From assembly GCA_963723995.1 (NCBI GenBank), contig CAVRSZ010000001.1:1581410-1645409 (forward strand): DNA of 64,000 nucleotides. Direction: 5' to 3'. Within the stretch, counting starts at the first letter, position 1, and each line of letters begins with the position of its first letter. The position numbers were made by a program, and so were the translations under genes. Below are positions 25,076 to 40,079 of this stretch, piece after piece. The DNA comes from an uncultured Acidimicrobiales bacterium (GTDB taxonomy: Bacteria; Actinomycetota; Acidimicrobiia; Acidimicrobiales; SZUA-35). Under the pieces are notes generated by a model. The model was not told the origin of the DNA. It did no database searches and saw only the letters and a list, made by a program, of their open reading frames with translations.

Positions 25076-25738
25076 TTACGGGTTGTTGGTGGTCTGCTCG
25101 GCGTCGAAGGTGAAGGTGGCCGTGGACGACAACCCCTGCACGGCATTCGATGCGGTGTTGGGTAGGGTCACGTTGAAGCAGAGGTTCTCGTTGGCGGTGG
25201 CCGCCAACACCCGGTCACCGGCCTGAGCCCCCTGGGTGGGGTCGCCGACGACATTGGCCGTACCGACGCTGCCGAGAATGCCGGCGTAGATCACCGAGCC
25301 GTCAGCCTGCCAGTTGGCGTCGTCGCAGGTGGTGACACCGGACTTGACCGTCAACACCAGCTCACCGGCCAGGGTGTCCTCGGTGGTGGTCGAGGTCATC
25401 GAGTACCGGAATTCGAGGCTGCCACTGTTCGACACGTTGATCGGGGCCGTGGCCTGATCACCGGGGACCATGTCGGTGGCGGTGACCACCGCCGTGGCCG
25501 GGGCCGCCACCAGGTCGATCGAGCCGGTGGAAAAGGCGTTGGCTCCCACCGCCTGCTGGTCGGTGAACAGCGCCAGCGACGACACGGTGAAGATGCCGCC
25601 GGCCAGGGCCAGGACGGCCAGGCTGGCCAGGATCCTGGTACCGGTTCGCTGCGGTCGGCCCGCCTCCTCATCGTGATCGGCACTCGGCAGCTGAGAGCCG
25701 TCGTTGTCAAGTTCGGGGGGTTGTGTTGTTGGTTTCAT
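25076..25738 (-). CDS. TasA/camelysin-like secreted protein with SipW-type signal peptide (paralogue 4)
   Basis: 220 aa, with 24 differences from the 14509..15171 product, half of them in the first 27 residues. It has the same LALFTDQQAVGANAFSTGSIDL motif. AGGAG lies upstream of the ATG. Confidence 0.8.
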   Translation of the reverse strand: MKPTTQPPELDNDGSQLPSADHDEEAGRPQRTGTRILASLAVLALAGGIFTVSSLALFTDQQAVGANAFSTGSIDLVAAPATAVVTATDMVPGDQATAPINVSNSGSLEFRYSMTSTTTEDTLAGELVLTVKSGVTTCDDANWQADGSVIYAGILGSVGTANVVGDPTQGAQAGDRVLAATANENLCFNVTLPNTASNAVQGLSSTATFTFDAEQTTNNP

Positions 25739-25815: not shown

Positions 25816-25914
25816 TTCGAAGCGCTGGGCCGCCGGAATCGGGGGATTCGGCCCGGGCCGGACGACCCATTGACCGGCGGCTCGCCGCACTCTGTCATTG
25901 GTTCGGTCATGGGG

Positions 25915-27744
25915 TCATGGCGCCCCCAGGAAGGTGAGGTCGGCGTCGGGTCCGAACGTCCCGGGCCGGTCCTGCTGGTCGACGGCGGTTGGATTGCCGT
26001 AGTAGAGGAACAATTCGGTGTCCGTGACCGAGGAGATCGCCGGAACCCGAACCCAGGCCCGGACCGAGCCGGTGGCCGGGTTGTAGCTCTCGATGGTGTG
26101 ATCCAGCCGGGTCACACCATCGGCGGCGGTGATCACCAGGTCGTCCCCGTCGGCCTGGGCTCCGGCCTGGACGTCGGTGTCATCAATGGCCAGATAGAGC
26201 ACGAAGTCGGTGACGTCGGCGTCGACCCGGTCGGCGTCGACCACGATCGGTTTGCGGTAGGCCCAGGTTCCGGCATCGAGCCAGGTTCCGACTTCGACCG
26301 GACCGGCCACGGTGAAGGAGGCAGGGGTGTCGTGGTTGGCCACCTCGGCCGCCAGCCACTCCGGCGACCGCACTGCGGTGACCAGCCGAACCTCGTCGAG
26401 CACGCCGTTGAAGGGGTCGGCCCCACCGGGAGCGGCCCCGATGGCCGTGGCGTCGGTGCTGGCAGGCAGGAGCCCGGCGGCCGGCTGCTGGGCCACCTGG
26501 ACACCATCGATGTAGAGCCGGATGACGGTGCCGTTCCAGGTGGCGGCAAGATGATGCCAGGTCCCGGCGGTGACGGTACCGCCCGACACCGTGACCGGAC
26601 CGTCGGCCGTGGTGTTGACGGTGGCCGAGGCCGTGCCCCCGGCGGCCACCGAGAGATCGAACCAGGTGGCCGCCCCTCGCTTGGTCACCACCACCGAATC
26701 GGCGACCACCGAATCGGCGACCACCCAGGCCGACATGGTCAACGAGCCTCGGCCCCCGAAGTCGACCGAGTCGACCGAGGCCCAGTCGTCGGAGCCGTCA
26801 AAGTCAAGGCCGTAGCCGATCCGTCCGGCAACGAGATCACCGGCCGTCATCGACCCCTGGCTCAGGCCGTCGAGATTGTTGATGGTGGAGTCGTCGATCT
26901 GGGGGGCGGTGCCGGCCGGATCTCGGGCCAGGTGCCACACCCCGGCCGCCTGCGGGGTCCACGTGGCTCTCACATCCTGCTGATCGGGAGCGTCGGCCGC
27001 CCCGAACACCAGGTAGACGGTGGTGTCGACCGACGACGACAGCACCGGCACCCGAACCCAGGTCTGCAACTCACCGGTGCCGGCGTCGAACCGTTCGATC
27101 TCGTGATCGAGCGGTGTCGTGCCGTCGGCGGCCACGAAACGGATGTCGGAGCCATCGGGCTGGGCCTGTACGGCGAGCGAACCATCGGTGATCGACACCA
27201 ACAAGGGGTAGTCGGCGAGATCGGCCTCCACCTGGGCGGCAGGCACCGTGATCGGAATACGACGGGTCCACGGGTCGGCCGAATACCAGGCGGTTCCGGC
27301 CGTACGGTCCTCGAAGTCGCCCAGGGTTCCGGAGTCGAAGTTCTCGGTGAGCAGGAACACGTTCTCGGGATCGTCGAGCACCGGAGCCGGGGAAGGATGA
27401 CCGAAGTACAGCCAGTAGCTGCTGATGCCCTCGGCCTCGATACCGGCCATCAGTCCGGAACAGGATGGTGGTGTCGGTCTGACCCCAGCCCGAGCCATCC
27501 TGCAGGACCCGGTCGAGTTCGATCCAGGCGGTCCCGTCCCAGCGCAGCACCCGAACGTCGGAGCCGTCGCCGACAGCGGCCCCGATGGCGACCAGGGCAT
27601 CGTGGTCGAAGGTGACGGGAACCGTGTAGCCGTTGGGAGCGGCTGCGGTGGAGGTCTCCACGTCGATGCGTTGGCGGAACAGATAGTTCGAGTCCCACCA
27701 CCCTGGGCCGGCCCATTCGATGACCTGCCAGGCGAAGGAGGCAT
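25915..27744 (-). CDS. C-terminal continuation: DUF2341 - LamG/ConA-like - DUF2341
   Basis: In frame from ~27455. Contains WTRRIPITVPAAQVEADLADYPLLVSI...DGSDIRFVAADGTTPLDHEIERFD...TWVRVPVLSS...VYLVFG (DUF2341-like), TAGTWHHLAATWNGTVIRLYIDGVQV (LamG), and a second YRKPIVVDADRV...DFVLYLAI...DHTIESYN...AWVRVPAISS...LFLYYGN. Confidence 0.65.
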   Translation of the reverse strand: MPPSPGRSSNGPAQGGGTRTICSANASTWRPPPQPLPTATRFPSPSTTMPWSPSGPLSATAPTFGCCAGTGPPGSNSTGSCRMARAGVRPTPPSCSGLMAGIEAEGISSYWLYFGHPSPAPVLDDPENVFLLTENFDSGTLGDFEDRTAGTAWYSADPWTRRIPITVPAAQVEADLADYPLLVSITDGSLAVQAQPDGSDIRFVAADGTTPLDHEIERFDAGTGELQTWVRVPVLSSSVDTTVYLVFGAADAPDQQDVRATWTPQAAGVWHLARDPAGTAPQIDDSTINNLDGLSQGSMTAGDLVAGRIGYGLDFDGSDDWASVDSVDFGGRGSLTMSAWVVADSVVADSVVVTKRGAATWFDLSVAAGGTASATVNTTADGPVTVSGGTVTAGTWHHLAATWNGTVIRLYIDGVQVAQQPAAGLLPASTDATAIGAAPGGADPFNGVLDEVRLVTAVRSPEWLAAEVANHDTPASFTVAGPVEVGTWLDAGTWAYRKPIVVDADRVDADVTDFVLYLAIDDTDVQAGAQADGDDLVITAADGVTRLDHTIESYNPATGSVRAWVRVPAISSVTDTELFLYYGNPTAVDQQDRPGTFGPDADLTFLGAP

Positions 27745-29548
27745 TCGACGCCATCACCGCCCGCTCGGCCGTGACCGTGGTCCCGTCGGTGATCTCGAAG
27801 GTGGCGGCCGCCTCACCCACCACGTCGTCGGCCACGTGGTCGGTGCGGCCACCGGCCACCGGGCCGGGCACGGCGACGGTGGAGATGGCGGTGGACCTGG
27901 AGGGGTCGAACGGTTCGACGGCGATCGGCTTCGACGACTCGCCGACGGCGAAGTCGACGACGCCATGCCGGACGGTGGTACCGTCCCGCAGATCGACCAC
28001 CTGCACCCGGACATCGAGCGGATCGCCGGCCACCGATCGGGTCACCTCGACGGTGCTGGAATCGGTCAGCCGGGCTCGGACCAGGCGCTCGCCGATATCG
28101 GCTCCCGTCGAGGCCGAGGTGACCGAGGCCAGCAGGAAGGTGTTGCCGGCTCGAACCGGCGAGCTCAGGACCCCGGAGTTGGCCGTGGCTCCCGAACCGA
28201 GGGAGACGTCAATGGTCTGAACCACGGCATCGGCCGGATCGGCGAAGGTCACCACCTGCCAGGCGAACGAGCGATCGGCGCCCAGGGCGGCCCCGGCCGA
28301 CTCGATGGTCAGATCGGACCCGGTGCCGAGATCGGCCCGGACCAGATCGTCGTACTCGAAGTCGCTGGAGGTCGCCGGGGGCGCGGTGCTCACGGTGACG
28401 AAACTGGCGGTGGGGTCCACGGCAGTCAAGGGCACCGTGACCGAGGGGGCGCCGGTGCCGCTGACCACGCCCCGCTGGACCGACACCCCACAGCCGTATT
28501 CGACCACCGACCACGCCACCACCACCGGCGGCGGTGAGCCGTTGTCGGTGTTGCGCACGATCTCGACCGCCGAGCCGTCGCCGGCCAATTGAACCTGGGC
28601 CGTGCCGTCGGCCGGCTCGTTGCCGCTGCTACGGACCGAGGCGAGCACGAACGACGTCGCCGCATCGACTGCAGTGATGGGCACGGTCACCGTTCCGGTC
28701 ACGGCATGAATCGATTCGCCGTCCTGGACCGAGGCCAGTTGCGGATCGAAACAGTCGGCCGAACCGAAGACGTTGTCGGGGACGGCCTCGGTGGTGGTGA
28801 ACAAGGCCCACGCCACACCTAGTCCGGCCATGGTCAACATCGGGGCCACGCCGAGGGTGGCCAAGCGTCGACGCCGCCGGCCACGGCCGGAGCCTCGGAC
28901 ACGACGACCGAGCCGGGAGGCACCGTCATCGACCCTGTTCCTTGGGCTCGTCGAACCGGCAGGCGACGCACCGACCGGGGAGGCCGACGAGCCGGTCCAG
29001 ATCCAGCGCAGAGCCTGGAACGTGAGCACAATGGTGGCCAGTGCCACCAAGGCCAGTGCCGGCCCGGGCTGGAACACGGTCATGACCCAACCCCCGAGGC
29101 GGGGGTAGATCCAGCGACCAACCAGCTCCTGGCCACCGTCGAGCGGGTAGGGGGCGGCGTCAGGGGCCTCGTTGGCGTCGCCCTGGGTAATGGCGAAGCG
29201 AGAACCACCGTTGGCCTCGATCTCGATCACCCGGTGGGTGATGGGGGCCTCCCCGGGCCGCCTCATGACCAGGATGTCCCCGACGGCCACGGCGCCGGCC
29301 TGACGGGGTTCGGCCACGATCAGGCTCCGAGGGGGTGCGGTCTCGCCCATCGATCCGGTGAGGATGACCACCGGACGGTAGCCGGCGATGAGACCACCCA
29401 CGACGGCGCCGGTGCCCAGGATCGTCGCCACCGAGACCGCGACCAGCAGCCACGACATGACTCGGCGGAGCGGGCTCCGCTTGGCTGTCCGGCGCCCGGC
29501 CGGAGCGGTGTTCCCGCCCGATGTCGTTCGCCTTCGACCCGTTCTCAT
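27071..29548 (-). CDS. Signal peptidase I (ER/SipW type) + passenger, N-terminal two thirds
   Basis: A TM segment (SWLLVAVSVATILGTGAVVGGLIAG) is followed by the SPase boxes VVILTGSMGE (Ser), APITHRV (His) and ITQGDANEAPD. A second TM follows, then an internal signal-like RRRRRLATLGVAPMLTMAGLGVAWALFTTTEAVPDNVFGS (28759..28900). After that come repeated ~110-aa beta-rich units (...SFAWQVV... appears twice). Confidence 0.7.
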   Translation of the reverse strand: MRTGRRRTTSGGNTAPAGRRTAKRSPLRRVMSWLLVAVSVATILGTGAVVGGLIAGYRPVVILTGSMGETAPPRSLIVAEPRQAGAVAVGDILVMRRPGEAPITHRVIEIEANGGSRFAITQGDANEAPDAAPYPLDGGQELVGRWIYPRLGGWVMTVFQPGPALALVALATIVLTFQALRWIWTGSSASPVGASPAGSTSPRNRVDDGASRLGRRVRGSGRGRRRRRLATLGVAPMLTMAGLGVAWALFTTTEAVPDNVFGSADCFDPQLASVQDGESIHAVTGTVTVPITAVDAATSFVLASVRSSGNEPADGTAQVQLAGDGSAVEIVRNTDNGSPPPVVVAWSVVEYGCGVSVQRGVVSGTGAPSVTVPLTAVDPTASFVTVSTAPPATSSDFEYDDLVRADLGTGSDLTIESAGAALGADRSFAWQVVTFADPADAVVQTIDVSLGSGATANSGVLSSPVRAGNTFLLASVTSASTGADIGERLVRARLTDSSTVEVTRSVAGDPLDVRVQVVDLRDGTTVRHGVVDFAVGESSKPIAVEPFDPSRSTAISTVAVPGPVAGGRTDHVADDVVGEAAATFEITDGTTVTAERAVMASNASFAWQVIEWAGPGWWDSNYLFRQRIDVETSTAAAPNGYTVPVTFDHDALVAIGAAVGDGSDVRVLRWDGTAWIELDRVLQDGSGWGQTDTTILFRTDGRYRGRGHQQLLAVLRSSFPGSGARRSRERVPAHRELRLRNPGRLRGPYGRNRLVFGRPVDPSYSDHGACRPGGGRSRRLPLVGVDHRWFARRTGPARWLRHPFRGRRRHDTARSRDRTVRRRHR

Positions 29549-30264
29549 TCCTCGACCTCCAGGTTGGAACCGTTGACGACCGCGTCGGACCGAGTCGCGG
29601 CCGGCGAGTGTTGGGCGAAGACGACCAGCTCGATGTCGAGCCGGGCGTCCTGGGTCTCGTTGGGGGCGGACAGCGGCAACCGGGCTCCAAGACACACCAT
29701 GGTCGACTGGTCGGGCTCCAGCCGCAGTCCCGGTGTGTCGGTCCCGGGTCGACCGAGGATGGGAACCTCATCGCCACCGAGGATGAGGTTGGTGATGTAG
29801 ACCTCATCGGCGGCGGCAATGCCGTCGCGGCATCGTTCGGCTCGCCAGACGTCGTACAGCAACCAGTCGGCCAGCGGCGACGAGGCCGGGGAGGCCGACG
29901 CCGTCATCCAGTATCGGATGGGAAGCGTGCCGGTGTTGCCCACGGCCAGTGCCCCGGTGACCGAGTCGCCCGGTGCCATGTTGGTGGCCGAGAACGGCTG
30001 GGGTGCACTCGGCGTGGTGGGACGTCCATTCAGCACGGAGATGCCATCGACATCGACGGCCTCGCTGACGGCCAGCTCCACCGATCCGGCACCGAGCCGG
30101 TTCCCGGTGAACTCCTCCCGGTCGGCAAAGTTGGCGTCCGACGACAAGGCGCATCGGCTGAGCAACCAGGGCAGGGCCACCACCGCCAGCACCACCAGGA
30201 CGGACACCGAGGGTGACATGCGGACACGGCGAAACGATGTCGGTTCGATCTCGGAACCGGTCAT
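29545..30264 (-). CDS. TasA/camelysin-like secreted protein (paralogue 3, divergent)
   Basis: 239 aa. The hydrophobic segment VSVLVVLAVVALPWLL is followed by SSDANFADREEFTGNRLGAGSVELAV and NMAPGDSVTGALAVGNTGTL. There are ATGA overlaps at both ends. Confidence 0.65.
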   Translation of the reverse strand: MTGSEIEPTSFRRVRMSPSVSVLVVLAVVALPWLLSRCALSSDANFADREEFTGNRLGAGSVELAVSEAVDVDGISVLNGRPTTPSAPQPFSATNMAPGDSVTGALAVGNTGTLPIRYWMTASASPASSPLADWLLYDVWRAERCRDGIAAADEVYITNLILGGDEVPILGRPGTDTPGLRLEPDQSTMVCLGARLPLSAPNETQDARLDIELVVFAQHSPAATRSDAVVNGSNLEVEE

Positions 30265-30869
30265 GCCGGCTTCACCTCCCAGATGAACCCGACGCTGGCG
30301 GCGCGCCCCAGCGCCTCCTCTCGATCCTGGAGGGCGAACCGGACCCGGTAGGTGCGGGAGTCACCCTGATTGAAGAATCGCTCCAGCTCGAGCCGGTTCC
30401 GGTCCAGTTCGTCCAGCGTGCCGTCGAACACCAGCCCGGAGGACACAAAGCCGTCGCAGTCACCGAAACCCCCCGATGGCCCCCGCTCGATGAGCACATC
30501 GAGAAATGGGGCGAGATCGCCGGTGATCTCGGCCTTCATGGTCAGATCGACCGGCACGATGGTTCCGCCGTAGGAGATGTTGATGCACTCCTCGTTGGCT
30601 CGACCGGGAGCCATATCGGTCAGATCGAACAGCGAGCTGCCGTTGTCGTCGTCGGACAGTTCGATGGTCCCCGACGTCACCTCCGATGCGGTCGTGGTGC
30701 CCTGAATGTCCAGGGCCTCGCCCGAACGGCTGATGACGAAGGTGGCGATGAGCAGGGCGGAAAGGGCGGCGGCGAACGCCCGGGCCGTGCCCTGATTGAC
30801 CCAGGTTCCCTGGGCCTCATCCTCCACATCGTTGGATCGGAGGTCTTCGAGGGTCAACGGACGAGCCAC
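30261..30869 (-). CDS. TasA/camelysin-like secreted protein (paralogue 2, divergent)
   Basis: 202 aa. The hydrophobic segment FAAALSALLIATFVI is followed by TTTASEVTSGTIELSD and DMAPGRANEECINISYGG. A GTG start lies 7 nt after an AGGAG that spans the upstream stop codon. Confidence 0.6.
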   Translation of the reverse strand: MARPLTLEDLRSNDVEDEAQGTWVNQGTARAFAAALSALLIATFVISRSGEALDIQGTTTASEVTSGTIELSDDDNGSSLFDLTDMAPGRANEECINISYGGTIVPVDLTMKAEITGDLAPFLDVLIERGPSGGFGDCDGFVSSGLVFDGTLDELDRNRLELERFFNQGDSRTYRVRFALQDREEALGRAASVGFIWEVKPA

Positions 30870-30878
30870 GGTGTACTC

Positions 30879-33800
30879 CTAGTGCGGCGAGACGGTGCTG
30901 GCCGCCGCAAGCTTGGCCTCCGGCGCCGGCGGTATCGGAGGACGGGCCGACCGGGCGATGTTTTCCCGAGCCAGGAGATCGGCCAGCTCGGCGGAGGTCA
31001 TGGGCCGATACAGGCCGTAGCCCTGCAGCAGGTCGGCACCGGCAGCCATGACCGCCGTTTTGTGACCTTCGGTCTCGACCCCTTCGGCCACCACCTCGAA
31101 ACCGAGGTTGTGGCCCAGTTCGACGACCGAGTTCAAGATGATGCGGTCCGAGTCGCTGGTGCAGGCCTGATGGACCAGCATTCGATCGAGCTTCAGCTGG
31201 CGAATGGGGAGACGACGGAGGTGACCGAGTGAGGTCCGCCCCTCGCCGAAGTCGTCCAACGACAAACCCACGCCCAGCCTGACCAGTTCGGTCACCACCT
31301 GTTCCAGGTCGTCGCCCGATGCCACGATGCGCTCACTGAGCTCCACCACCACCTGGCTTGGCCGAACCCCGGTCAGCAGCAGGGCATCGCCCAGGTTGGG
31401 AATCAGCGTCGGCGACGACAGTTCGGCCGGTGAGGCGTTGATGGCCAGCGTGAACGGTCGCTCACCGGAGATCGGCCAACGGCTCATTTCACCCAGCGCG
31501 GTGTGGACGATCCAGCCGTTCAGTTCACTGACCAGATCGGCCTGCTCGGCCATCTGCAGCGCCATGCCCGGTCCGAGCGCACCCAACTCGGGGTGATTCC
31601 ACCGGAGGAGAACCTCGGCACCCATGATGCGGTGACCGACGGTCGAGACCAGGGGTTGGAACACCAGGTCGAGGCCGTCGTGTTCGAGAGCCCGCTTGAA
31701 CTCGCCGACCAGGCGGCCCCGGCGGGGTTCGGCCAGGTCGAGATCGGCGTGATAATAGGAAACCCGGCGGGACGACGACGACTGCTTGGCTGCGTACATG
31801 GCGGCATCGGCCCGTCGCAACCACTCGCTGGAATCGACGCCGTCCTCGTGGAAGGCGATGCCGATACTGGCACCGACCACCACCGTGTCCTGATCGAGTT
31901 CGATCGGTTCGGCCAGCGCGGCGTGAATGGCGCTGGCCACGTTCGAGGCATCACCGCCCCGGCACCGTGGCAACAGCACGGTGAACTCGTCCCCGCCGAG
32001 GCGGGCCACCAGACCAAAGGAATCGGCGACGGTCTGCAACCGCGTGGCCACCACCTTGAGCAGTTCGTCGCCGGCATCGTGACCAAGGGTGTCGTTGACC
32101 GGCTTGAACCCGTTGAGATCGAGGAACAGCACGGCCATCATGTCATCCGGACCCCGTTCGGCCATCGCTTCGGGCTCCAACTCCCGGCTGAGCTCCCGAA
32201 GGAAGTAGGCCCGGTTGGGCAGGCGGGTCAGGGCGTCATGCAGGGCCTGGTGTTCGAGTTCGGAATGCAGGTCCTTCAGCTCGTTGACCAGATCCCGGTT
32301 CTGGAGGGCAACGGTGGCCTGGCCGCACAGCAGTCGAAGGGCCTCGACCGGTCCGGCGTCGAAGGGACGGCCCACGAAGTTGGCACCTCGGAGCACGATC
32401 AGGGTCTCGTCGGTGGAAAGGGTGATGCGAACCAGGGCGTCCAGGCCGGCCTCGAACAGACCCTCGACCTCCTGTCCGTCGCCGTCGCTGCCGTCGACCA
32501 ACACCTCGGGGTGGGGCAGATCGACCATGCGCAGCCCGCTGGCGGGCTGCCCGGGCTGGGGCAGATGCCGGGCATACAGTTCCTCGGATACTTCGATTCG
32601 GGTCCAGCCGCCGGTCGGGGTACGGGCCCATGCATCAACGACGTCGAACCCGAGGCTTGCCGCCGATTTGGTCAGGGTCTCGAACAGGGCCGTTCCGATC
32701 CTGGTCACTTCGAATCCCAGCTCGGCCACGTTCTCGAGCAGGCGTCCCCGGGCCACGGCATCAACGGTGGCCCGACGCTGCAGGATGACATCGCCCAGAA
32801 GCTGCTCGGCCAGGAAGGCACCGGGAATGACCACCAGCAACAGCACACTCATCTGATCCAGGAGCTGCTCCAGTTCACCGATCAGCTGGTTCGAGGGGCT
32901 GTCGATACTGTTGAGAATCCAGACCCGTCCAAGAATGGTGAGCACCGCCATCAGCATCCAGTGGACGAGGGCTCCGGCCAGGCGGTATCGGACCGCGGCC
33001 TCCACGATGGGAAGTGCGGTCAGCACCCAACCGATGCCGGAACCGCCGGTGGCGGTGGTCAACAGCACCACCAGCAGGGTGTCGGCCACCAACTGAAACA
33101 GACCGACCCATTGGCTCTCCCCTACCTGATCGAGCCGACCCGAGACCACATTGGTTCCGGCCAACCACAGCAGCGAGAGCGCCAGAAGCTGGGCCGGCCC
33201 GATGTTGACGGCCTCGATGACGAAGCGGCTGCCATCGATGGCGTACTGACCGGTGATCATGACCGCGATCAGGATGCGGACCCGTCGAACAGCCTGATCG
33301 GCCAGAGTCGAGGTGCGCTCGTTCAGCAGGGCCTTGATCCGCCGCTTGCGACTACTGAGATCCCGAACGGCGATGCCGATGGCGGCCAACGACAGCACGG
33401 CGAAGGCGCCAAGTGACACCAGGTCGGCCCGGCCCAACCAGACCGCGGGAAGCCCGATAAGGGGGATGACGAGTCGGGCCGCACCAATGACCGAGGCGGC
33501 GGGAACAAGGTCGGTATCGGGTGTGGGATTGGCGTCGCCCTTGGTGACATAGGCCTCTTTCTCCTCCAACACCTCGAAGACCCGGTGCGTGATGATGTCA
33601 CCGTCACGGTCGAAGGTGATCACCGATCGCTGGCCCAGGAGCTCATCCGGTCGATCCTCGATCATCACCACATCGCCGGGGCGCAGCACCGGGGCCATCG
33701 AGCCGGAGACGATCACCACCGGATTCCAGCCGGCGCCCAGGGTCACGATGACCACCCATAGCCCGAGCATGCCGGCCAGGTAGAGGTAGATCCACGAGAT

Positions 33801-33899
33801 CAGGGACACCACGGGAACGAACCGTCCATGACCGATGAGGGCTGGAATACCCGTCCTCACCACGGCGGGTCGGGCCGGGCTGAAGCGTTCCACGTTCAC
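30879..33899 (-). CDS. Fusion protein: SipW/archaeal-type signal peptidase I - polytopic membrane domain - GAF-like - GGDEF - EAL
   Basis: 1006 codons, with a GTGA overlap with the upstream gene. SPase boxes: VVIVSGSMAPVLRPGDVV, GDIITHRV, TKGDANPTPD. About 6-7 hydrophobic helices span aa ~140-365. The GGDEF domain reads RLGGDEFTVLL (nt 31983..32000). The EAL domain carries EVLLRW, AINASP, ELSE, DDFGEG, KLDR, EGVETE and QGYG. Confidence 0.8.
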   Translation of the reverse strand: MNVERFSPARPAVVRTGIPALIGHGRFVPVVSLISWIYLYLAGMLGLWVVIVTLGAGWNPVVIVSGSMAPVLRPGDVVMIEDRPDELLGQRSVITFDRDGDIITHRVFEVLEEKEAYVTKGDANPTPDTDLVPAASVIGAARLVIPLIGLPAVWLGRADLVSLGAFAVLSLAAIGIAVRDLSSRKRRIKALLNERTSTLADQAVRRVRILIAVMITGQYAIDGSRFVIEAVNIGPAQLLALSLLWLAGTNVVSGRLDQVGESQWVGLFQLVADTLLVVLLTTATGGSGIGWVLTALPIVEAAVRYRLAGALVHWMLMAVLTILGRVWILNSIDSPSNQLIGELEQLLDQMSVLLLVVIPGAFLAEQLLGDVILQRRATVDAVARGRLLENVAELGFEVTRIGTALFETLTKSAASLGFDVVDAWARTPTGGWTRIEVSEELYARHLPQPGQPASGLRMVDLPHPEVLVDGSDGDGQEVEGLFEAGLDALVRITLSTDETLIVLRGANFVGRPFDAGPVEALRLLCGQATVALQNRDLVNELKDLHSELEHQALHDALTRLPNRAYFLRELSRELEPEAMAERGPDDMMAVLFLDLNGFKPVNDTLGHDAGDELLKVVATRLQTVADSFGLVARLGGDEFTVLLPRCRGGDASNVASAIHAALAEPIELDQDTVVVGASIGIAFHEDGVDSSEWLRRADAAMYAAKQSSSSRRVSYYHADLDLAEPRRGRLVGEFKRALEHDGLDLVFQPLVSTVGHRIMGAEVLLRWNHPELGALGPGMALQMAEQADLVSELNGWIVHTALGEMSRWPISGERPFTLAINASPAELSSPTLIPNLGDALLLTGVRPSQVVVELSERIVASGDDLEQVVTELVRLGVGLSLDDFGEGRTSLGHLRRLPIRQLKLDRMLVHQACTSDSDRIILNSVVELGHNLGFEVVAEGVETEGHKTAVMAAGADLLQGYGLYRPMTSAELADLLARENIARSARPPIPPAPEAKLAAASTVSPH

Positions 33900-34465
33900 G
33901 GCCTGGCCTCCACGATCAGTGCGAAGTCGGTGTAGCGACCCTCGGCATCGGGGTCATCGAGCAACTCGGCTCGGGCCGCCAGGGTGACTCGGCTTCCCTG
34001 CTCGATTCCCGTTCCCAGAACCAGCCCGTCGGCGTAGCTGCCGTGGGTCTGCCACATCTCGGTCAAGGTGCCGTCCAACGCCGGGTCGGGCGGTGGCCCC
34101 TCGGTCGGACACGGTTCGTCGCTGGTCCACACCTGGAAGCGGATGTAGCGGTCCAGCTCGGTTCCCCCCAATCGACGACCGTGGAGGCGAAGATCGGCTT
34201 CGATCGAACCCCGATAGATCACCTCGACACAGGCGTCGGTGAACGAGCCCGGGTACAGCTCGTCCTCGTTGAACAGCAACTCCACCGCATCCCCGACCTG
34301 GTCGAGTTCGATCGACCCGGCACTGAAGAGTCCCGCGGTCGAGGTCGAGGCCGAGACCTCGGCCTGACTGGTGCGGATGCCGTTGATCACAACGACGCCG
34401 GCGGCCAGCACAACAATGGCGGCCGCCAGCCGACGCCCGGCGGCGAACCAACGTTCCGCCGTCAT
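33896..34465 (-). CDS. TasA/camelysin-like secreted protein (paralogue 1, divergent)
   Basis: 189 aa. The hydrophobic segment LAAAIVVLAAGVVVI is followed by AEVSASTSTAGLFSAGSIELDQ and ELYPGSFTDACVEV. There is an ATGA overlap with the upstream gene. Confidence 0.6.
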   Translation of the reverse strand: MTAERWFAAGRRLAAAIVVLAAGVVVINGIRTSQAEVSASTSTAGLFSAGSIELDQVGDAVELLFNEDELYPGSFTDACVEVIYRGSIEADLRLHGRRLGGTELDRYIRFQVWTSDEPCPTEGPPPDPALDGTLTEMWQTHGSYADGLVLGTGIEQGSRVTLAARAELLDDPDAEGRYTDFALIVEARP

Positions 34466-37400
34466 TGGTCGCCGTCCTGTTCCGCACCGACCGGCGTCTC
34501 CTCGCCCGCTTCGCCGCCACCCGGCGTGGGCCCCTCGACCTCGTTGCCCTCGACCTCGTTCCCGTCGACCTCGCCACCCCCGACCTCGTTCCCGTCGACC
34601 TCGCCACCCCCGACCTCGCTATCCCCGACCTCGCTGCCCTCGACCTCGCTACCCTCGACCTCGTTCCCGTCGACCTCGTTGCCCTCGACCGAGTCGGGGC
34701 TCTCGGTACCCCCCTGGGGGATGCTGGAACCATCTGCCGGGGTCGTGACATCGGCCGCCGTCCCCGGGGTCGCGGCATCACCGACAGCGGCCACGGTCAC
34801 GCCGCCGGCGCCGATGGTGACGAGCTGCCCTGCGCCGACCTCGATCCGCTCGATGGTGAATGCGTCACCGGCGCCGGGAACGGGATCGTCGGGACTTCCG
34901 GCGCCGACCCCGGGGTCGGTCGAACCGGCCGCCGGGGTGATGCGAACGGTGTAGCGACCGGGAACCAGGATCTCGCCGTCAACCGCCGCCCGCCACCGGC
35001 CACCGGGGCCGACCAGCTCGACGGTACCGGCATCGAGACCGGCATCGGTTTCGATTCGCAGCCGGCTCAGAACCAGGGTGGCGTCGTCGGGTATGGGTGC
35101 GACGTGGCGATCGGGCCCCAGGGAGACCTCGATCAGCGCCTCGCCCGACCATGCGGCCACCGTGTCGGGGCGCAGGAATCCGCCGCTACCGTCGCCCTCC
35201 AGCGGTTCCGACCAGGCGTCGGTGTAGACCCGCAGTCGAAGATCGTCCTCGGCCACAAACGGGCCGGCCGATCCGGCGCCGTCGCCCACGTCGTCGTCGA
35301 GAGAGGGAACCAGCACGGTCAGGATGGGAGGGATGGTGGCCGAACCCTGCTCACCGGGCTGAGCCGACGCCGGTCCGGCCACAGGGCCCAGGAACAGGGC
35401 GAGGACGGCGGCCACCGTGGCCACCGCCGCCAGCAGTCTGAGCAAGTTGAGGTCGCTGCGGGAGAAGCCGGTTGACAGATCCTCGGGGTGGGAGTGGGCT
35501 ATCGCCGATTCACCAGCCTGCCACCCGCCGTCCGATCTCGAGTTGTGGAACGATCCCCTTCCGGCCGCATCGTGACCGACCTCGAACGCGTCGTGGGCAC
35601 CGAGGGCACAGTACTCACCGAGGGCACAGTACTCGGTGAGCGCGATCCGGTCGTCGTCGCTCAGCTCCTCGAACTCCATTCCCACCCGCACCAATCCCGA
35701 CTCGTGCCGGGTGGCGGCCCGGACCCGGGCCGTCGTGGCGACGCCGTGCTCGGTGCCGTCGGCCCTCGGTACCGAGAAGCGGATGGAAACGGTCTCGTCC
35801 AGAGCGGGGGCCGATTCGAGCACGGCACCGACGCCGACCGGGGTGACATCCAGGGTGGTTCCCCGCCGGCCGGCCAACGTGATCCCGGCCTCGAGCGGAA
35901 CACGGGGAGCGCGGCGGCGCTGGCGGTGCCATACCAGCGCTCCGAGCACGTCGACCAGGATGTAGGTCGTCGCCAGGGCCACCAGGATGAGCACGGTGCT
36001 GTGCCGACGGGTCATGGCCGGCAACAGCGTGGGGTAGACGGTGTTGAAGGCTCGGGCGGCGAAGGCCACCTCGAAGAAGCTGAAAACCACGACCAGGACC
36101 TGGAGCTGACCCAGTGCGTCGCGACGACCCTGGCTTCGAACACGGTCCCGCCGATCAGGCAGGGGCGACACGGTCGGGGCGAGGGCGGCCAGGTCGGCCC
36201 CCAAGGTTCGCCAGCCGTGACGGGTCCAGTCCCCGAACGACATGATCCCACCCGACAGCAGGCGCCGGGCCGTCATGTTGGCGGCGGCGAAACCAACCAT
36301 GGCCGTCACAACCGTGGTCAACTCGCCCTCAAATGGCAGCCGACCCAGAAGCAGAGCCGCGGCCAGCACCGAAGTGACGGCCAGCTGGCGTATGCCGTAG
36401 GTCAGCGACACCCCGGCGGCCATGGCCGCCCACCGGGCGGTGCGGGTCACACCACGGGTGGTGAAGGCCGCCCCCAGGCTGATCAGGGCCGCCGCGCTGC
36501 GGTCACGGCGAGCCACCAGGTAGGGCTGGAGCGTATCGGGTGCCAGGTCCCGAATGAGGGGCCGCGAATCGTGGCCGGTGGACCAGCCATCCCGATGGAG
36601 GGCGACGGCCCACTCCGGCACCATCCAGTAGGAGGGGGCCTGGTCGACCAGGTCCCTCAGCGCAGCGCGTCGAACCAGCGAAGCCGGGCCCCGCCATGGG
36701 GCAACTCCCCGACTGGCCAGGGCCGGACCGATCAGCTGACGTTCCAGGGCTTCCTCGTCACCACCCCGTTTGAGATGGAACAGCGAGTTGGGATTGAGCA
36801 GACCGACGGCCAGCTGCCGGACGGCAGCACGGTCATCGATCGGCGAGTCGACCACGGCGTCGAACAGTCGGGGCATGGGAACCTGACCCGCCTGCAGCCA
36901 CAACAACCACGCCCCGTCGCCGATGTCGGCCATCGAGGGCAGCGGGCTGACTGCGCTCGAATGGTCGATCCCCAATTCGAGCCGAAGTGCAGTCGTTGAA
37001 TCGAAACGATCGATGACGGTCTGGACATCGGGATCGACCCGGCCGGTCAGCACGGTCGTCGTGCGCTGCCAGCCGGTGACGGCGAGACCGACCATGGTGC
37101 GCTCCAGATCGGTCGCCGTCGACTCGGGACCGACCGTGATCACGACGTCGATCTCATCCCGGTCGATGCGGGAACCGGCGTCGACCGGTCGGCGTTTGGG
37201 CACGACCTGGAATCGAAACAGCAGGAGCTGAACCCACGACCAGATCTCGGCCCACAGCACCGGCAACGACAGGGCCAGGATCCAACCCCGTCCAATGGTG
37301 GTGGTCCGCCAGGCCAGATAACCCAGACCGGCGACGAGCACGACGGCCACGACCAGACGCGTCAGAAGGGTCACATCGACCGGTGCGTCGGGGTCGACCT

Positions 37401-37473
37401 GACGGTGATCGGCGGCCGGGGCCACAAGGCCCGAACGACCGGTGGTCGGTTGATCGGAAGGGGATGCGTGCAC
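34462..37473 (-). CDS. BcsA-like (GT2 fold, catalytic motifs degenerate) membrane protein with PilZ domain and extracellular acidic-repeat C-terminus
   Basis: 1003 codons; GTG start with GAGG 5 nt upstream. The arrangement of TM helices and IDVVITVGPES ... LWLQAGQVP (where DxD is expected) ... ALHRDGWST ... DLAPDTLQPYLVARRDRS (where QxxRW is expected) is collinear with cellulose synthase BcsA as I remember it. PilZ motifs: RRRAPR (RxxxR) and DVTPVG (D-x-S/T-x-x-G), at nt ~35637..35925. A late TM/signal-like segment (LLRLLAAVATVAAVLALFLGPVAGPASA) is followed by ~300 aa ending in EV[EDG]G[NSG] pentapeptide repeats. Confidence 0.65.
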   Translation of the reverse strand: MHASPSDQPTTGRSGLVAPAADHRQVDPDAPVDVTLLTRLVVAVVLVAGLGYLAWRTTTIGRGWILALSLPVLWAEIWSWVQLLLFRFQVVPKRRPVDAGSRIDRDEIDVVITVGPESTATDLERTMVGLAVTGWQRTTTVLTGRVDPDVQTVIDRFDSTTALRLELGIDHSSAVSPLPSMADIGDGAWLLWLQAGQVPMPRLFDAVVDSPIDDRAAVRQLAVGLLNPNSLFHLKRGGDEEALERQLIGPALASRGVAPWRGPASLVRRAALRDLVDQAPSYWMVPEWAVALHRDGWSTGHDSRPLIRDLAPDTLQPYLVARRDRSAAALISLGAAFTTRGVTRTARWAAMAAGVSLTYGIRQLAVTSVLAAALLLGRLPFEGELTTVVTAMVGFAAANMTARRLLSGGIMSFGDWTRHGWRTLGADLAALAPTVSPLPDRRDRVRSQGRRDALGQLQVLVVVFSFFEVAFAARAFNTVYPTLLPAMTRRHSTVLILVALATTYILVDVLGALVWHRQRRRAPRVPLEAGITLAGRRGTTLDVTPVGVGAVLESAPALDETVSIRFSVPRADGTEHGVATTARVRAATRHESGLVRVGMEFEELSDDDRIALTEYCALGEYCALGAHDAFEVGHDAAGRGSFHNSRSDGGWQAGESAIAHSHPEDLSTGFSRSDLNLLRLLAAVATVAAVLALFLGPVAGPASAQPGEQGSATIPPILTVLVPSLDDDVGDGAGSAGPFVAEDDLRLRVYTDAWSEPLEGDGSGGFLRPDTVAAWSGEALIEVSLGPDRHVAPIPDDATLVLSRLRIETDAGLDAGTVELVGPGGRWRAAVDGEILVPGRYTVRITPAAGSTDPGVGAGSPDDPVPGAGDAFTIERIEVGAGQLVTIGAGGVTVAAVGDAATPGTAADVTTPADGSSIPQGGTESPDSVEGNEVDGNEVEGSEVEGSEVGDSEVGGGEVDGNEVGGGEVDGNEVEGNEVEGPTPGGGEAGEETPVGAEQDGDQ
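34531..34690 (-). repeat. About 10.5 tandem copies of a degenerate 15-bp unit (cctcgacctcgttgc-like) encoding EV[EDG]G[NSG] pentapeptides
   Basis: Read directly from the sequence: ...ctcgacctcgttgccctcgacctcgttcccgtcgacctcgccacccccgacctcgttcccgtcgacctcgccacccccgacctcgctatccccgac... Confidence 0.85.
35598..35633 (-). repeat. Perfect 18-bp tandem duplication (caccgagggcacagtact x2), in frame (EYCALG-EYCALG)
   Basis: Read directly from the sequence. It lies immediately C-terminal to the PilZ domain. Confidence 0.95.
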
Positions 37474-37522
37474 GATTGCCTCAGAACTGTTCTCCCTCGA
37501 TCATCGGCACATGGCCGACGCC

Positions 37523-37565
37523 CATTGAGTAGTCACCCGGGTCGGCCGCACTATTTGACTCAATG
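37523..37565. promoter_or_regulatory. 8-bp perfect inverted repeat CATTGAGT-N27-ACTCAATG, 50-90 nt upstream of the operon start
   Basis: Read directly: 37523..37530 and 37558..37565. Confidence 0.25.
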
Positions 37566-37721
37566 ACCGATGACCCTTGGGTAGAACACCTTCCACCGAC
37601 ACTCATGTCGGGGCCGTTCGGCCCATGTTCGTATGGAGCGGGCGACCCCGACCCCGGTTCCGGCGGCGCCGAATCATCGACCGTCGATCGGTGCCGGCGC
37701 CGTGTCGGCCTGTGAGTTTCG

Positions 37722-38385: not shown

Positions 38386-38820
38386 CCCGAAGCCACCGGG
38401 TATCGGTGAAGGAGATCGTGTCGGGCCACGAGCTAGGGGTGGCCCGGCACGCTCCCCGCGTCACCGGGTCGGGGCGTCCGAACCAACCATGCGACGGCCC
38501 GCAACGGCATCTCGTCCTGCGGCAGATTCGTGCCACAAAGATCTCGATGTGGATCCCCAACACCCTGCCTTGTCGAACCCCGCAGAGTCCGCTGGTTGCT
38601 CGATCATTCAACATTGCGGCACGTCTCAGGAACGTTCGCCCGCAGGCCGAACTTCAGGCCGGCCTCGGCCGGCGGCAGGTGCTCGAGGACTTCGGGTTCA
38701 GGTCCGTGGGCTGGCGATCAGCGAGTCACGCCCACATGAGGACCGTTCCGGCCCAGTACACGCCCCACACTCCATCGGATGTGAACTAATAGATTCACCT
38801 GAAATAGTTGCTAGGAATGC

Positions 38821-38849
38821 TTGTTTATCGAACATGTGTTTGCTATAGT
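38821..38849 (+). promoter_or_regulatory. Sigma-70-type promoter giving a leaderless mRNA for the HNH gene
   Basis: TTGTTT (38821..38826), a 17-nt spacer, then TATAGT (38844..38849). The ATG at 38856 begins 7 nt after the -10 element. The local sequence is AT-rich. Confidence 0.5.
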
Positions 38850-38855
38850 GAAGGC

Positions 38856-40079
38856 ATGACCACCGGCGAGTTGGCACCACAACCACACAGCGACGATCTG
38901 ACGCCGTTGGAGACCGCTCTCGATGCCATGGTGGCAACCGACCCCGACTGCCTTCCTGTGGCCGAGCTGCTGGACCGGGCCTGTCGCCTGCAACGGTTGA
39001 CGGCCCGGCTCGACGCTCTACGGGCCACCGTGTTGGCCGCCGCCGATTCGGCGTCCGAAGCGCCCGGCGTGCTGAGAGAGCTCGGGTTTCGCAACGCCTC
39101 ACAAGTAGTGGCCGCCGAAACCGGGGCACCAGCCCGGGAGATCCACGCCACCGCCCGCACCGGGCGATGGCTCGATGAGTTCCCGGTCTTCGCTCAGGCG
39201 GCCGCCGAGGGGGTGTTGACCCTGCGACACCTGCGGGAATTGAAGAGCTTGGACACAGCCAACCGGCGAGACGCCCTGGTGGCGTCCCAGGACGAGTTGG
39301 TGGCTGCGGCTCGGGAACACGACTTTGTGGAGTTCACCAACCGGGTCACCGTGTGGTTGATCAACCACACCACGTCCGACGAGGTGCAAGAACAGGTCAA
39401 GAAGACCTCGTGCACCTGGAACACCAACACCGACGGGTCCATCGACGGCCGGTTCCACCTCGACCCGCTCTCAGCGGCCGCAGTCGGAACCGCACTGGGT
39501 GATGAGATGCAGCGCCTGTTCCGCCAACAATCCGAAGGGCCCGGCAACGCCGAAACACCGAATCGGCGGCGAGGCCAAGCCCTCGTTAGCCTGATCGTCG
39601 GTGGGGCCGAAACCCCTGGGTCGGCCACCACCACCCCGTTGGTGAACCTGGTCATCGGACAGAAGGTCTTGGAGAACCTCCTGGAGCGGTTCCTCGATCC
39701 TGACACAGCGACAATCGACGTCGATCGGGATGATCCCGACTACCGGTGTGAACGCATCGACGGGACACCAATCCACCCTGATCTTGCGTTTGTAGCCACC
39801 GCGGTGGCCGAGTTCGAACGGATCGTGCTCAACGAGAAGTCCAGAGTGATCGACATGTCGGTCAAAGCCCGGGGGTTCCCCGACTGGATGAAACGAGCGT
39901 TACTGATCGAAGCCAGAGGCAGATGTCGAACCCGGGGCTGTGATGCGCCCTACCACTGGTTGCAAGTTGATCATGTCGAACCCCACTCGAAGGGCGGGCC
40001 CACCAGCCTGGCCAACGGACAGATCCTCTGCGATCCAGACAACAAGTGGAAGCGCGATCTCGTACAGGCCGTGGCCTGA
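38856..40079 (+). CDS. DUF222 domain HNH endonuclease (REP13E12-type)
   Basis: The helical N-terminal region (LDRACRLQRLTARLDALRATVLAAAD...) is typical of DUF222. The C-terminal HNH reads CRTRGCDAPYHWLQVDHVEPHSKGGPTSLANGQILCDPDNKWK. I chose the start at MTTGELAP because of the leaderless promoter; the ORF track starts at 38808. Confidence 0.8.
   Translation: MTTGELAPQPHSDDLTPLETALDAMVATDPDCLPVAELLDRACRLQRLTARLDALRATVLAAADSASEAPGVLRELGFRNASQVVAAETGAPAREIHATARTGRWLDEFPVFAQAAAEGVLTLRHLRELKSLDTANRRDALVASQDELVAAAREHDFVEFTNRVTVWLINHTTSDEVQEQVKKTSCTWNTNTDGSIDGRFHLDPLSAAAVGTALGDEMQRLFRQQSEGPGNAETPNRRRGQALVSLIVGGAETPGSATTTPLVNLVIGQKVLENLLERFLDPDTATIDVDRDDPDYRCERIDGTPIHPDLAFVATAVAEFERIVLNEKSRVIDMSVKARGFPDWMKRALLIEARGRCRTRGCDAPYHWLQVDHVEPHSKGGPTSLANGQILCDPDNKWKRDLVQAVA

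Follow-up and report, generated by a model that had tools for sequence, protein, structure and literature searches.

[quoted passage not shown] 2012, as cited in PMC4238804). The fused protein described in this study resembles SipW in its Ser-His catalytic centre, its N- and C-terminal anchors and its TIGR02228 class, and both are encoded among TasA-family genes, their presumed substrates. In contrast, SipW is about 190 aa long with a short cytoplasmic tail, whereas the fused protein extends for about 820 aa beyond its second anchor through a membrane module and GAF, GGDEF and EAL domains. Signal peptidases of the ER/archaeal type (MEROPS S26B) use His as the general base, in contrast to Lys in bacterial P-type enzymes. 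MucR and MorA of Pseudomonas aeruginosa are, like the fused protein, membrane-bound GGDEF-EAL tandems with both motifs intact. MucR reportedly supplies a local c-di-GMP pool to Alg44, the PilZ protein of the alginate polymerase, and this pairing is paralleled by a BcsA-like PilZ neighbour of the fused gene. However, the inputs of these two proteobacterial proteins are MHYT or PAS modules rather than a protease, and neither has a secretion enzyme in its polypeptide. The mycobacterial proteins DcpA/MSDGC-1 and Rv1354c, from the same phylum, share the order GAF-GGDEF-EAL of the cytoplasmic domains, and both cyclase and phosphodiesterase activities have been reported for them; unlike the fused protein, they are soluble and have neither a membrane module nor a peptidase. 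A further comparison is the LapD-LapG system of Pseudomonas fluorescens, where LapD, a membrane GGDEF-EAL protein, is functionally linked to an extracytoplasmic protease whose target is a biofilm surface protein. The GGDEF and EAL domains of LapD are degenerate and non-catalytic, whereas both c-di-GMP motifs of the fused protein are intact, and LapG is a separate cysteine protease sequestered by LapD, whereas here a serine signal peptidase is covalently fused. Finally, in SipA/LepA of Streptococcus pyogenes, which is among the fold matches of our model (4n31, Foldseek), a signal-peptidase fold has been recruited to pilus biogenesis. SipA has neither catalytic residues nor signalling domains and resembles the pseudo-peptidase state of distant fused relatives, whereas the protein analysed here keeps its catalytic residues.

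We analysed a stretch of 64,000 nucleotides (the window) from an uncultured Acidimicrobiales bacterium, in which an earlier note had proposed, from the letters alone, a signal peptidase I joined to a GGDEF-EAL module in a single 1006-codon ORF. The ORF was confirmed: it has a GTG start, encodes 1006 aa and is read without a stop or frameshift between the peptidase and the membrane modules. The fused gene and its parts are as follows.

30879..33899, minus strand: whole fused gene including its stop codon, in the order signal peptidase, TM, six-TM module, GAF-like domain, GGDEF, EAL
33429..33809, minus strand: TM1 (about aa 31-58) and ER/archaeal-type signal peptidase I catalytic domain (aa 31-157), from TIGR02228, SEC11A and Foldseek
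33699-33701, 33585-33587, 33534-33536 and 33516-33518, minus strand: catalytic codons of the peptidase for Ser67, His105, Asp122 and Asp128, respectively
33360..33422, minus strand: TM2 (about aa 160-180), C-terminal anchor of the peptidase, from family-averaged hydropathy, K+R counts and the model
32796..33284, minus strand: six-segment membrane module (about aa 206-368), shared by the unfused relatives of about 800 aa
32265..32762, minus strand: cytoplasmic GAF-fold domain (about aa 380-510) and signalling helix (aa 515-545), from AlphaFold2 and Foldseek
31773..32246, minus strand: GGDEF domain (aa 552-709), Pfam PF00990, 143.5 bits
31002..31703, minus strand: EAL domain (aa 733-966), Pfam PF00563, 196.7 bits

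The start codon of the fused gene and the stop codon of the 189-aa gene before it overlap as GTGA, GGAGG lies 8 nt 5' of this start, and the TAG stop of the fused gene is embedded in the AGGAG ahead of the next gene. In 44 of 52 species-level Acidimicrobiia genomes the ORF is likewise uninterrupted, 900 aa or longer and equipped with GGDEF, EAL and DDFG motifs, and the combination of peptidase, GGDEF and EAL that had been claimed recurs as the full architecture in about 25 protein clusters at 50% identity. The window belongs to an assembly of metagenome type and high GC, frameshifts break up several public orthologues (into 849+151 aa or 836+161 aa, for instance) and a neighbouring gene in the window carries a probable 1-nt indel, so that the fusion might be thought an artefact of assembly, sequencing or gene calling that joins two genes. 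However, the reading frame continues from the peptidase into the membrane module both in the window and in 44 independent species-level assemblies, the splits of the orthologues lie within the EAL region and not between these two modules, and GC at the three codon positions is 0.72/0.44/0.81 over the full length of the ORF, as is typical of coding sequence. We regard an artefact as extremely improbable, and these results confirm that the fusion is real. In the literature we found no paper on a signal peptidase-GGDEF-EAL architecture, and database names for such proteins read only 'signal peptidase I'.

More distant relatives of about 800 aa have the order 6TM-GAF-GGDEF-EAL and no peptidase. 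In two of three unfused loci examined (those of P0052 and P0058), a stand-alone SipW-type peptidase gene with intact catalytic boxes lies directly upstream, stop and start overlapping. These separate genes are a Rosetta-stone pair for the fused protein, and the arrangement shows that the fusion arose from adjacent overlapping genes.

The Ser, His and Asp boxes of ER/SipW type reported for the N-terminus were borne out by profile, alignment and fold. The NCBIfam model TIGR02228 'signal peptidase I, archaeal type' matches aa 31-157 with 76.5 bits (cut-off 51.85), while the Pfam Peptidase_S26 match to the fused protein is weak (E 0.049). Human SEC11A was matched at E 9e-9 (phmmer against PDB), its SGSMEP, IVHRV and TKGDNN aligning with SGSMAP, ITHRV and TKGDAN of the window protein, where the motifs lie at aa 65-68 (SGSM, nt 33696-33707), 104-107 (THRV, nt 33579-33590) and 121-124 (GDAN, nt 33528-33539); Asp128 aligns with the Asp that follows TKGDNN in SEC11A. 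In a Foldseek search with an AlphaFold2 model (pLDDT 77 overall, about 75-88 in the peptidase domain), SEC11C (7p2q_A) matched at E 9e-4 with a TM-score on target of 0.59 and 25% identity, and SEC11A (7p2p_A) was also among the fold matches. A curated profile and a fold search thus both back the peptidase and confirm that the N-terminal domain belongs to the ER/archaeal (SipW/Sec11) type of signal peptidases and that Ser67, His105, Asp122 and Asp128 are intact. Since the fused protein gave no match to the NCBIfam SipW equivalog NF046067 (cut-off 190 bits), the peptidase is of the SipW type and not a SipW orthologue. The general remark that signal peptidases are small, stand-alone enzymes does not quite hold in this lineage, where many are fused to extracellular LamG, CBM96 or RCC1 modules; a cytoplasmic signalling module was found on none of the other signal peptidase fusions examined there.

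Eight hydrophobic segments in all are predicted in the fused protein, two in the peptidase (aa 31-58 and 161-179) and six in the conserved module; the membrane helices noted previously are thereby borne out. A helix at aa 160-192 of the AlphaFold2 model covers TM2, which is followed by a Lys/Arg-rich loop (aa 181-208) predicted to be cytoplasmic. An arrangement with the N-terminus inside, the peptidase outside and the C-terminus inside fits family-averaged hydropathy and the Lys/Arg distribution with eight segments, the even number being based on hydropathy together with the positive-inside rule and a requirement for GTP from the cytoplasm; AlphaFold2 merges two of the predicted segments (aa 289-331) into one long helix. 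The peptidase is thus predicted to be anchored at both ends with its catalytic domain on the outer face, as in SipW. The six-segment module matched no Pfam or NCBIfam family and is the best-conserved part of the fused protein, with an invariant, polar-rich set of residues (D273, T274, W291, P297, E300, H313, W314, D348, Q349, P359, G360, E365 and Q366). The GAF-like linker suggested earlier was supported by structure: GAF domains are the top Foldseek matches of the model, at E values of about 2e-4 to 1e-3. No Pfam GAF match was obtained for the window protein itself, and the relative P0058 gives a faint GAF_2 match.

The RLGGDEF motif was intact as described, but it spans 31983-32003 (aa 633-639) and does not end at 32000; GGDEF itself occupies aa 635-639 (nt 31983-31997). 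The domain also has NDxxGHxxGD and RRADxAMYxAK and is conserved in nearly all relatives, and its profile score, like that of the EAL domain, greatly exceeds the cut-off. The first GGDEF box reads DLNGFK in the window protein, with the second Asp replaced by Asn, and DLDGFK or DLNGFK in relatives. Compared with the generally known consensus, the 'DxD' box is thus DLN in the window protein. No RxxD was found at the canonical I-site, as had been observed: residues 626-629, at -9 to -6 from G635, are D-S-F-G, so that no product-inhibition site is predicted. All the EAL landmarks that had been listed were located, namely EVL (762-764), AINASP (819-824), ELSE (853-856), DDFGEG (882-887), KLDR (903-906), EGVET (939-943) and QGYG (959-962), and the catalytic set E762, N821, E853/E856, D882/D883, K903, E939 and Q959 is conserved in relatives. 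Loop 6 reads DDFGEGRTS in the window protein and DDFG(E/Q)G(K/R)TS across the family. The loop 6 consensus DFG(T/A)GYSS goes with active EAL enzymes, and the atypical loop appears to depart from this consensus linked to phosphodiesterase activity.

These features bear on the direction in which the two halves may communicate. With an external protease-related domain, membrane helices and then a cytoplasmic GGDEF-EAL part, the protein could work inside-out as LapD does in governing a periplasmic protease: the GGDEF-EAL part would mainly sense cytoplasmic c-di-GMP, binding it at the EAL or GGDEF site, and by way of the GAF domain and the membrane module would turn the peptidase outside the cell on or off, so that fibre-subunit maturation would be gated post-translationally by the c-di-GMP level. 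The family-wide loop DDFGEG[R/K]TS could favour binding over hydrolysis, and the NCBIfam LapD model gives a partial match (135.6 bits against a cut-off of 1020). On the other hand, unlike in LapD, every catalytic residue checked in GGDEF and EAL is kept across about 40 relatives, which argues for selection on catalysis and against a LapD-type receptor, and far better matches were obtained with the enzymatically active tandems MucR (5m3c, E 3.5e-81) and MorA (4rnh, E 1e-74), the closest PDB relatives of the C-terminal 460 aa. We therefore consider control from the inside unlikely. It differs only in direction from the bifunctional enzyme proposed below, and both could hold.

The fused gene always lies between two TasA-superfamily paralogues within a cassette whose gene order, w189 - fusion - w202 - w239 - second peptidase/LamG - w220, is conserved across loci. 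Its neighbours in the window are listed below.

34462..37473, minus strand: 1003-aa BcsA-like protein with a GT2-fold domain, membrane helices and PilZ (Pfam PilZ 31 bits; BcsA fold)
33896..34465, minus strand: w189, 189-aa TasA-superfamily paralogue with an N-terminal signal anchor, upstream; its stop overlaps the fused-gene start
30261..30869, minus strand: w202, 202-aa TasA-superfamily paralogue, downstream of the fused gene
29545..30264, minus strand: w239, 239-aa TasA-like protein, from BLASTP to w220, a weak Peptidase_M73 match and synteny
27071..29548, minus strand: second signal peptidase of SipW type, extended by a long extracellular part (TIGR02228 51.9 bits; SipW model 36.5 bits)
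25076..25738, minus strand: w220, 220-aa TasA/camelysin-family protein (Pfam Peptidase_M73, PF12389, 39.2 bits)

w189 is found at its position in nearly all related loci, and w202 also lies downstream of the unfused relatives, a w202-like gene being found there for P0052 and P0058, and of pseudo-peptidase relatives. The NCBIfam TasA model matches w220 at E 2.4e-5, and its SipW-cognate signal peptide is near threshold (TIGR04088, 17.4 bits against a cut-off of 19). w239 matches w220 at E 1.6e-11, a value from a small database. In hhalign comparisons the w189 and w202 families matched each other at 99.6% and the Peptidase_M73-type w220 family at 94% and 91%, respectively; judging from these profiles, w189 and w202 are TasA-superfamily paralogues. 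A strand of the form F-x-x-G-T/S-I/V-D/E-L is visible after the N-terminal signal anchor in the TasA-like flanking proteins.

The second peptidase has intact catalytic boxes and is the only peptidase of the operon to match the SipW equivalog model (36.5 bits, cut-off 190). Its ORF is listed to 29695, but translation probably begins with the ATG at 29548, which overlaps the w239 stop. In orthologues it continues in frame into the DUF2341/LamG ORF (25915..27744); the second peptidase/LamG gene keeps to one frame in 34 of 34 loci, 28 of them without any interruption, and the window has one extra base near 27450 in it. As the cassette always includes this second peptidase of SipW type, the fused peptidase may be redundant for processing. 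Moreover, Ser, His and/or the GDAN box have disappeared from seven distant fused relatives (P0045, P0046, P0048, P0054, P0057, P0060 and P0088) that keep the fold, and several of them retain GGDEF and EAL intact, so that the peptidase fold may support the c-di-GMP module as a sensor or dock that needs no catalysis. The fused protein would then be a c-di-GMP receptor-enzyme with an unusual input domain, chiefly sensing or docking TasA-like anchors or N-termini outside the cell or holding the protein at the export site, with the second peptidase doing the processing; the return of SipA, an inactive signal-peptidase homologue for pilus polymerisation, from the fold search is in line with such a role. 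However, Ser67, His105, Asp122 and Asp128 are invariant among 13 close-clade relatives, a pattern not easily accounted for unless catalysis is under selection, 49 of 52 Acidimicrobiia species loci have the peptidase boxes, and the stand-alone peptidase next to unfused relatives keeps its boxes as well. A chiefly non-catalytic role in the window protein thus seems decidedly unlikely.

Two genes upstream of the fused gene lies the BcsA-like gene, which is found upstream of the cassette in only the closer loci, about 20 in number. Its PilZ domain (aa 518-617) has the near-canonical motifs RQRRRAPR and DVTPVG, and among relatives of the 1003-aa protein PilZ was matched in 11 of 11 and GT2 in 4 of 11. 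The model of the protein matches BcsA (9b8v/4p00) at E values of about 1e-22 (Foldseek). In a by-eye alignment its catalytic motifs appear to be replaced, QAGQVP standing where DxDHVP is expected. These features make it a candidate c-di-GMP receptor, which may be non-catalytic.

Taken together, our data favour, with somewhat better than even confidence, a bifunctional enzyme that would mature fibre subunits outside the cell and set a local c-di-GMP pool inside it. Outside, the SipW/Sec11-type Ser-His domain would trim the signal anchors off w189, w202, w239 and w220, and this cleavage would expose the N-terminal strand used by TasA-type subunits in fibre assembly. Inside, the GAF-GGDEF-EAL part would make and/or break c-di-GMP at the same membrane site, and the PilZ domain of the BcsA-like protein, possibly with other receptors, would read the local pool. 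Through the shared membrane site and the reading of this pool, we propose that fibre-subunit export and c-di-GMP-dependent matrix functions are coordinated, with the six-segment module and the GAF domain, which lie between the two enzymes, as the likely transmission path. The coupling of precursor processing and c-di-GMP level suggested in the earlier note is supported by the overlapping separate genes of distant relatives, the invariant TasA-like flanks and the BcsA-like PilZ protein; the enzyme activities and the direction of coupling are inferred. A bolder proposal, which we hold to be rather unlikely, is that the peptidase is the input of a new type of c-di-GMP sensor and relays to the balance of cyclase and phosphodiesterase through the GAF domain, the input being engagement or cleavage of TasA-like anchors outside, or capture of released signal peptides by the polar six-segment module. 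The fusion would physically link matrix-protein export to second-messenger signalling. If the sensor proposal were true, the cell would monitor the flux of its fibre export by means of a second messenger, and lineages in which the catalytic residues have been lost would have gone over from a mode of 'cleave and report' to one of 'bind and report'.

The earlier note had described positions 30879 to 33899 of the minus strand as one 1006-codon ORF joining a signal peptidase to a GGDEF-EAL module, and this was confirmed. Its codon-position GC (0.72/0.44/0.81, in a genome of 67% GC) is typical of coding sequence, and its junctions are tight: the start codon, GTG, shares bases with the stop codon of the 189-aa gene before it (GTGA), a GGAGG precedes it by 8 nt, and the TAG stop lies inside the AGGAG preceding the next gene. 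The exact protein is present in NCBI/ENA without a name. All motifs reported in the note were found in their places, with the correction that RLGGDEF spans nt 31983–32003 and not 31983–32000, and inspection of the GGDEF I-site position agreed that RxxD is absent. Pfam detected the GGDEF domain (aa 552–709, 143.5 bits) and the EAL domain (aa 733–966, 196.7 bits). At the N-terminus, Pfam gave weak matches only (Peptidase_S26, E 0.049; Peptidase_S24, E 0.12) and would by itself have rejected a peptidase. The ER/archaeal-type assignment was settled by three other searches. The curated NCBIfam model of archaeal/ER-type signal peptidase I, TIGR02228, matched with 76.5 bits against a cut-off of 51.85; phmmer against PDB matched human SEC11A at E 9e-9, whose SGSMEP, IVHRV and TKGDNN align with SGSMAP, ITHRV and TKGDAN of the fused protein; and an AlphaFold2 model of aa 1–545 (pLDDT 77) gave fold matches to SEC11C and SEC11A. 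GAF domains were the best matches in the same fold search, which supports the proposed GAF-like linker at the level of fold.

From hydropathy and Lys/Arg counts, taken as means over 13 relatives, and from the AlphaFold2 model, we infer the following topology.

Predicted layout of the fused protein
Start of the protein: short cytoplasmic N-terminus
aa 31–58: first transmembrane segment (TM1)
aa 59–157: peptidase domain, predicted to be external
aa 161–179: second transmembrane segment (TM2)
aa 181–208: Lys/Arg-rich cytoplasmic loop
About aa 206–368 (window 32796–33284): membrane module of six further hydrophobic segments
About aa 380–510: cytoplasmic helix leading into a GAF fold
aa 515–545: signalling helix, followed by GGDEF and EAL

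Residues 289–331 form one long helix in the AlphaFold2 model, and hydropathy together with a conserved RxR at 304–306 suggests two segments there; an even number of segments is needed because GGDEF-EAL must stay in the cytoplasm. The six-segment module had no family match in Pfam or NCBIfam and is the most conserved part of the fused protein, above either enzyme domain, with D273, T274, W291, P297, E300, H313, W314, D348, Q349, P359, G360, E365 and Q366 as its polar or structural invariants. The invariant Asp, Glu, His, Gln and Pro residues sit inside predicted membrane helices.

A word-indexed search retrieved 14 close relatives (46–62% identity), all from Acidimicrobiia MAGs and named, where they carry any name, 'signal peptidase I'. 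When aa 1–545 were searched exhaustively with HMMER against 1.84 billion representatives, 45 proteins were found at E < 1e-30, and domain-wise phmmer recognized the full architecture of peptidase, membrane module, GAF, GGDEF and EAL in 25 representatives (960–1056 aa where complete). When one genome per GTDB species was scanned and loci with a long N-terminal match were kept, 52 loci were obtained, the nearest 92% identical and nearly all labelled Acidimicrobiales, Acidimicrobiia or Ilumatobacteraceae. Of these, 49 retain the Ser, His and Asp boxes. In 44 of the 52, the ORF runs for at least 900 aa without a break and has GGDEF, EAL and DDFG motifs, bearing out the continuous frame from peptidase to membrane module; the reading of the fusion as an artefact of two genes was rejected on this count. 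The ORF was truncated by contig ends in three loci and broken downstream of the membrane module in five, the mapped breaks lying within the GGDEF-EAL part and not at the peptidase/membrane junction.

Some relatives carry irregular sequences. Two long-read MAG relatives have an orthologue broken within the EAL region (849+151 aa in L001/L015 and 836+161 aa in L002/L035), and several relatives from databases carry Arg/Pro-rich tails at their ends, as is typical when high-GC sequence is frameshifted. These splits and tails are probably assembly errors, and such relatives inflate the apparent count of 'GGDEF-only' variants. One locus with the full cassette (CAXMRH010000059.1) is labelled 'Chthoniobacterales' (Verrucomicrobiota), all others being Acidimicrobiia; the label probably reflects a binning error rather than horizontal transfer.

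The peptidase was missing in 14 representatives, eight of which are complete proteins of about 780–840 aa, 33–37% identical, that start at the membrane module. We looked up the neighbourhoods of three such unfused relatives. Directly upstream of P0052 lies a gene for a 196-aa SipW-type peptidase that overlaps it by 4 nt and keeps TGSM, THRI and GDAN, and downstream lies a gene resembling w202, the 202-aa neighbour of the fusion. A 170-aa Peptidase_S26-like gene directly precedes P0058 with an 8-nt overlap, and another peptidase gene and a Peptidase_M73 gene are found further upstream. No peptidase gene was found upstream of P0075, so two of these three unfused loci show the adjacency. Given the overlapping peptidase genes, the fused architecture looks like a merger of two adjacent, translationally coupled genes, and the occurrence of the pair in fused and adjacent form is independent evidence for a functional link between the peptidase and the c-di-GMP unit.

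In a table of motifs, the SGSM/THR/GDAN/D, GGDEF and EAL residues are kept nearly throughout the window's clade. Seven distant fused relatives, 27–33% identical (P0045, P0046, P0048, P0054, P0057, P0060 and P0088), have other residues in place of the Ser, His and/or GDAN box. GGDEF and EAL motifs are intact in P0045 and P0057 despite the altered peptidase boxes and GGDEF is kept in P0054 and P0088; P0048 has lost every motif. Altered peptidase boxes beside intact c-di-GMP motifs imply that the peptidase fold can persist as a non-catalytic external domain. The seven form a natural pseudo-peptidase series. By eye, the gene upstream of P0045 (locus L084) resembles the C-terminal portion of the peptidase-fusion protein P0015. 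The existence of pseudo-peptidase relatives, and of a second peptidase in the operon, would fit a peptidase domain that serves mainly as a non-catalytic sensor or dock, but the catalytic residues are strictly conserved in the window's clade, and we consider this reading quite unlikely for the window protein.

Comparison of the window neighbours with all loci by tblastn showed that gene order is conserved as w189 – fusion – w202 – w239 – second peptidase – DUF2341/LamG – w220, in which the w genes encode TasA-like proteins named by their length in aa. The w220 protein matches Peptidase_M73/TasA (39.2 bits), with sub-threshold matches to TasA and SipW-cognate signal models. Neither w189 nor w202 had a family match in Pfam or NCBIfam, so their kinship to TasA is seen only by profile–profile comparison. 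With profiles built from alignments of related loci, hhalign matched w189 to w202 at 99.6%, and the w189 and w202 families to the w220 family at 94% and 91%. In all four TasA-like neighbours, a signal anchor leads into an F/S-x-x-G-T/S-I/V-D/E-L strand, which resembles the N-terminus of mature TasA. [quoted passage not shown] The second peptidase matches TIGR02228 (51.9 bits) and has a long extracellular extension. Its ORF (27071..29695) and the DUF2341/LamG ORF (25915..27744, both minus strand) form one frame in all 34 related loci, 28 of them without interruption; the window has one extra base near 27450 (...TTCCGGACTGATGGCC...), which splits this gene into two overlapping ORFs and reflects either an error of sequencing or a genuine frameshift or pseudogene.

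In about 20 closer loci, the cassette is preceded by a gene for a 1003-aa PilZ protein (34462–37473, minus strand, in the window). PilZ was detected in all of 11 relatives of this protein and GT2 families in four. Although phmmer of the protein against PDB returned nothing useful, a model built on the 11 relatives matched the bacterial cellulose synthase BcsA (E ~1e-22), including its c-di-GMP-bound form. The protein carries RQRRRAPR and DVTPVG as its PilZ motifs but has QAG at the GT2 DxD position. QAGQVPMP, invariant in the family, sits at the BcsA D-x-D-H-V-P metal site, TED and QxxRW look substituted, and the last 80 aa are an acidic E-V-D/E-G-N/S repeat. With its GT2 sites substituted in this way, the BcsA-like protein may act as a c-di-GMP receptor and have lost the ability to polymerise sugar.

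On balance, we favour, with modest confidence, a bifunctional protein that combines an active SipW-type peptidase with a GAF-GGDEF-EAL unit. Outside the cell, the peptidase would mature the TasA-like subunits of the operon; inside, the GAF-GGDEF-EAL unit would set a local c-di-GMP pool that would be sensed by the BcsA-like PilZ protein or by other receptors. Among solved structures, the C-terminal half is closest to the GGDEF-EAL tandems of MucR and MorA, and MucR serves as a model of local signalling to a polymerase that bears a PilZ domain. Control in the other direction, with c-di-GMP gating peptidase activity as in LapD-like systems, seems unlikely given the intact catalytic motifs. Overall, the interpretation in the earlier note, with its predicted activities, was supported.

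Promoter and terminator scans of 24500–40500 performed no better than on shuffled sequence, and an Rfam scan of the upstream gap returned one snoRNA match at chance level and nothing else. The roughly 2.7 kb upstream of the PilZ gene (37474–40212) has a lower GC of 0.59–0.65 and no ORF with typical codon bias; a 423-aa ORF (38808..40079, plus strand) has an HNH endonuclease domain. This region may be a mobile or degraded element at the island edge. Downstream of the cassette, a long run of giant predicted surface proteins (1612–24869, minus strand) suggests a large adhesion or matrix island.

Predicted surface proteins downstream of the cassette
1612–3306, minus strand: SdrD-like protein
3730–9738, minus strand: beta-helix/NosD protein, 2002 aa
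9768–12725, minus strand: FG-GAP/DUF7948 protein
15357–19487, minus strand: cadherin-like/LamG protein
21870–24869, minus strand: NHL/DUF7948 protein

The nearest known peptidase is SipW, which, unlike the fused protein, has no signalling domain; a passage of PMC4238804 citing Terra et al. (2012) calls it bifunctional, its second role being biofilm-specific. Other long SipW-type peptidases that we retrieved are fused to extracellular CBM96, RCC1-like or LamG domains, not to cytoplasmic signalling domains. Within the literature searched, we found no paper on a signal peptidase–GGDEF/EAL fusion or on c-di-GMP in Ilumatobacter-type bacteria, and no described case of a protein-export enzyme in one polypeptide with a c-di-GMP enzyme. 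Very many input domains have been described for c-di-GMP enzymes. Each component part here is of a known kind; what is new is the combination, together with its conservation and Rosetta-stone origin. The architecture is surprising and ties protein export to c-di-GMP, yet it recombines familiar domains in uncultured organisms, with putative activities. Acidimicrobiia are a widespread, almost uncultured actinobacterial class, and the fusion, together with the unfused adjacent-gene form, is genomic evidence that TasA-type fibre biogenesis is wired to c-di-GMP signalling in them. The fused protein offers a compact system for asking in what way local pools of c-di-GMP are linked to particular matrix machines and whether sensing can be a function of a signal peptidase; peptidase domains both active and catalytically dead occur as a natural series and provide ready-made controls.
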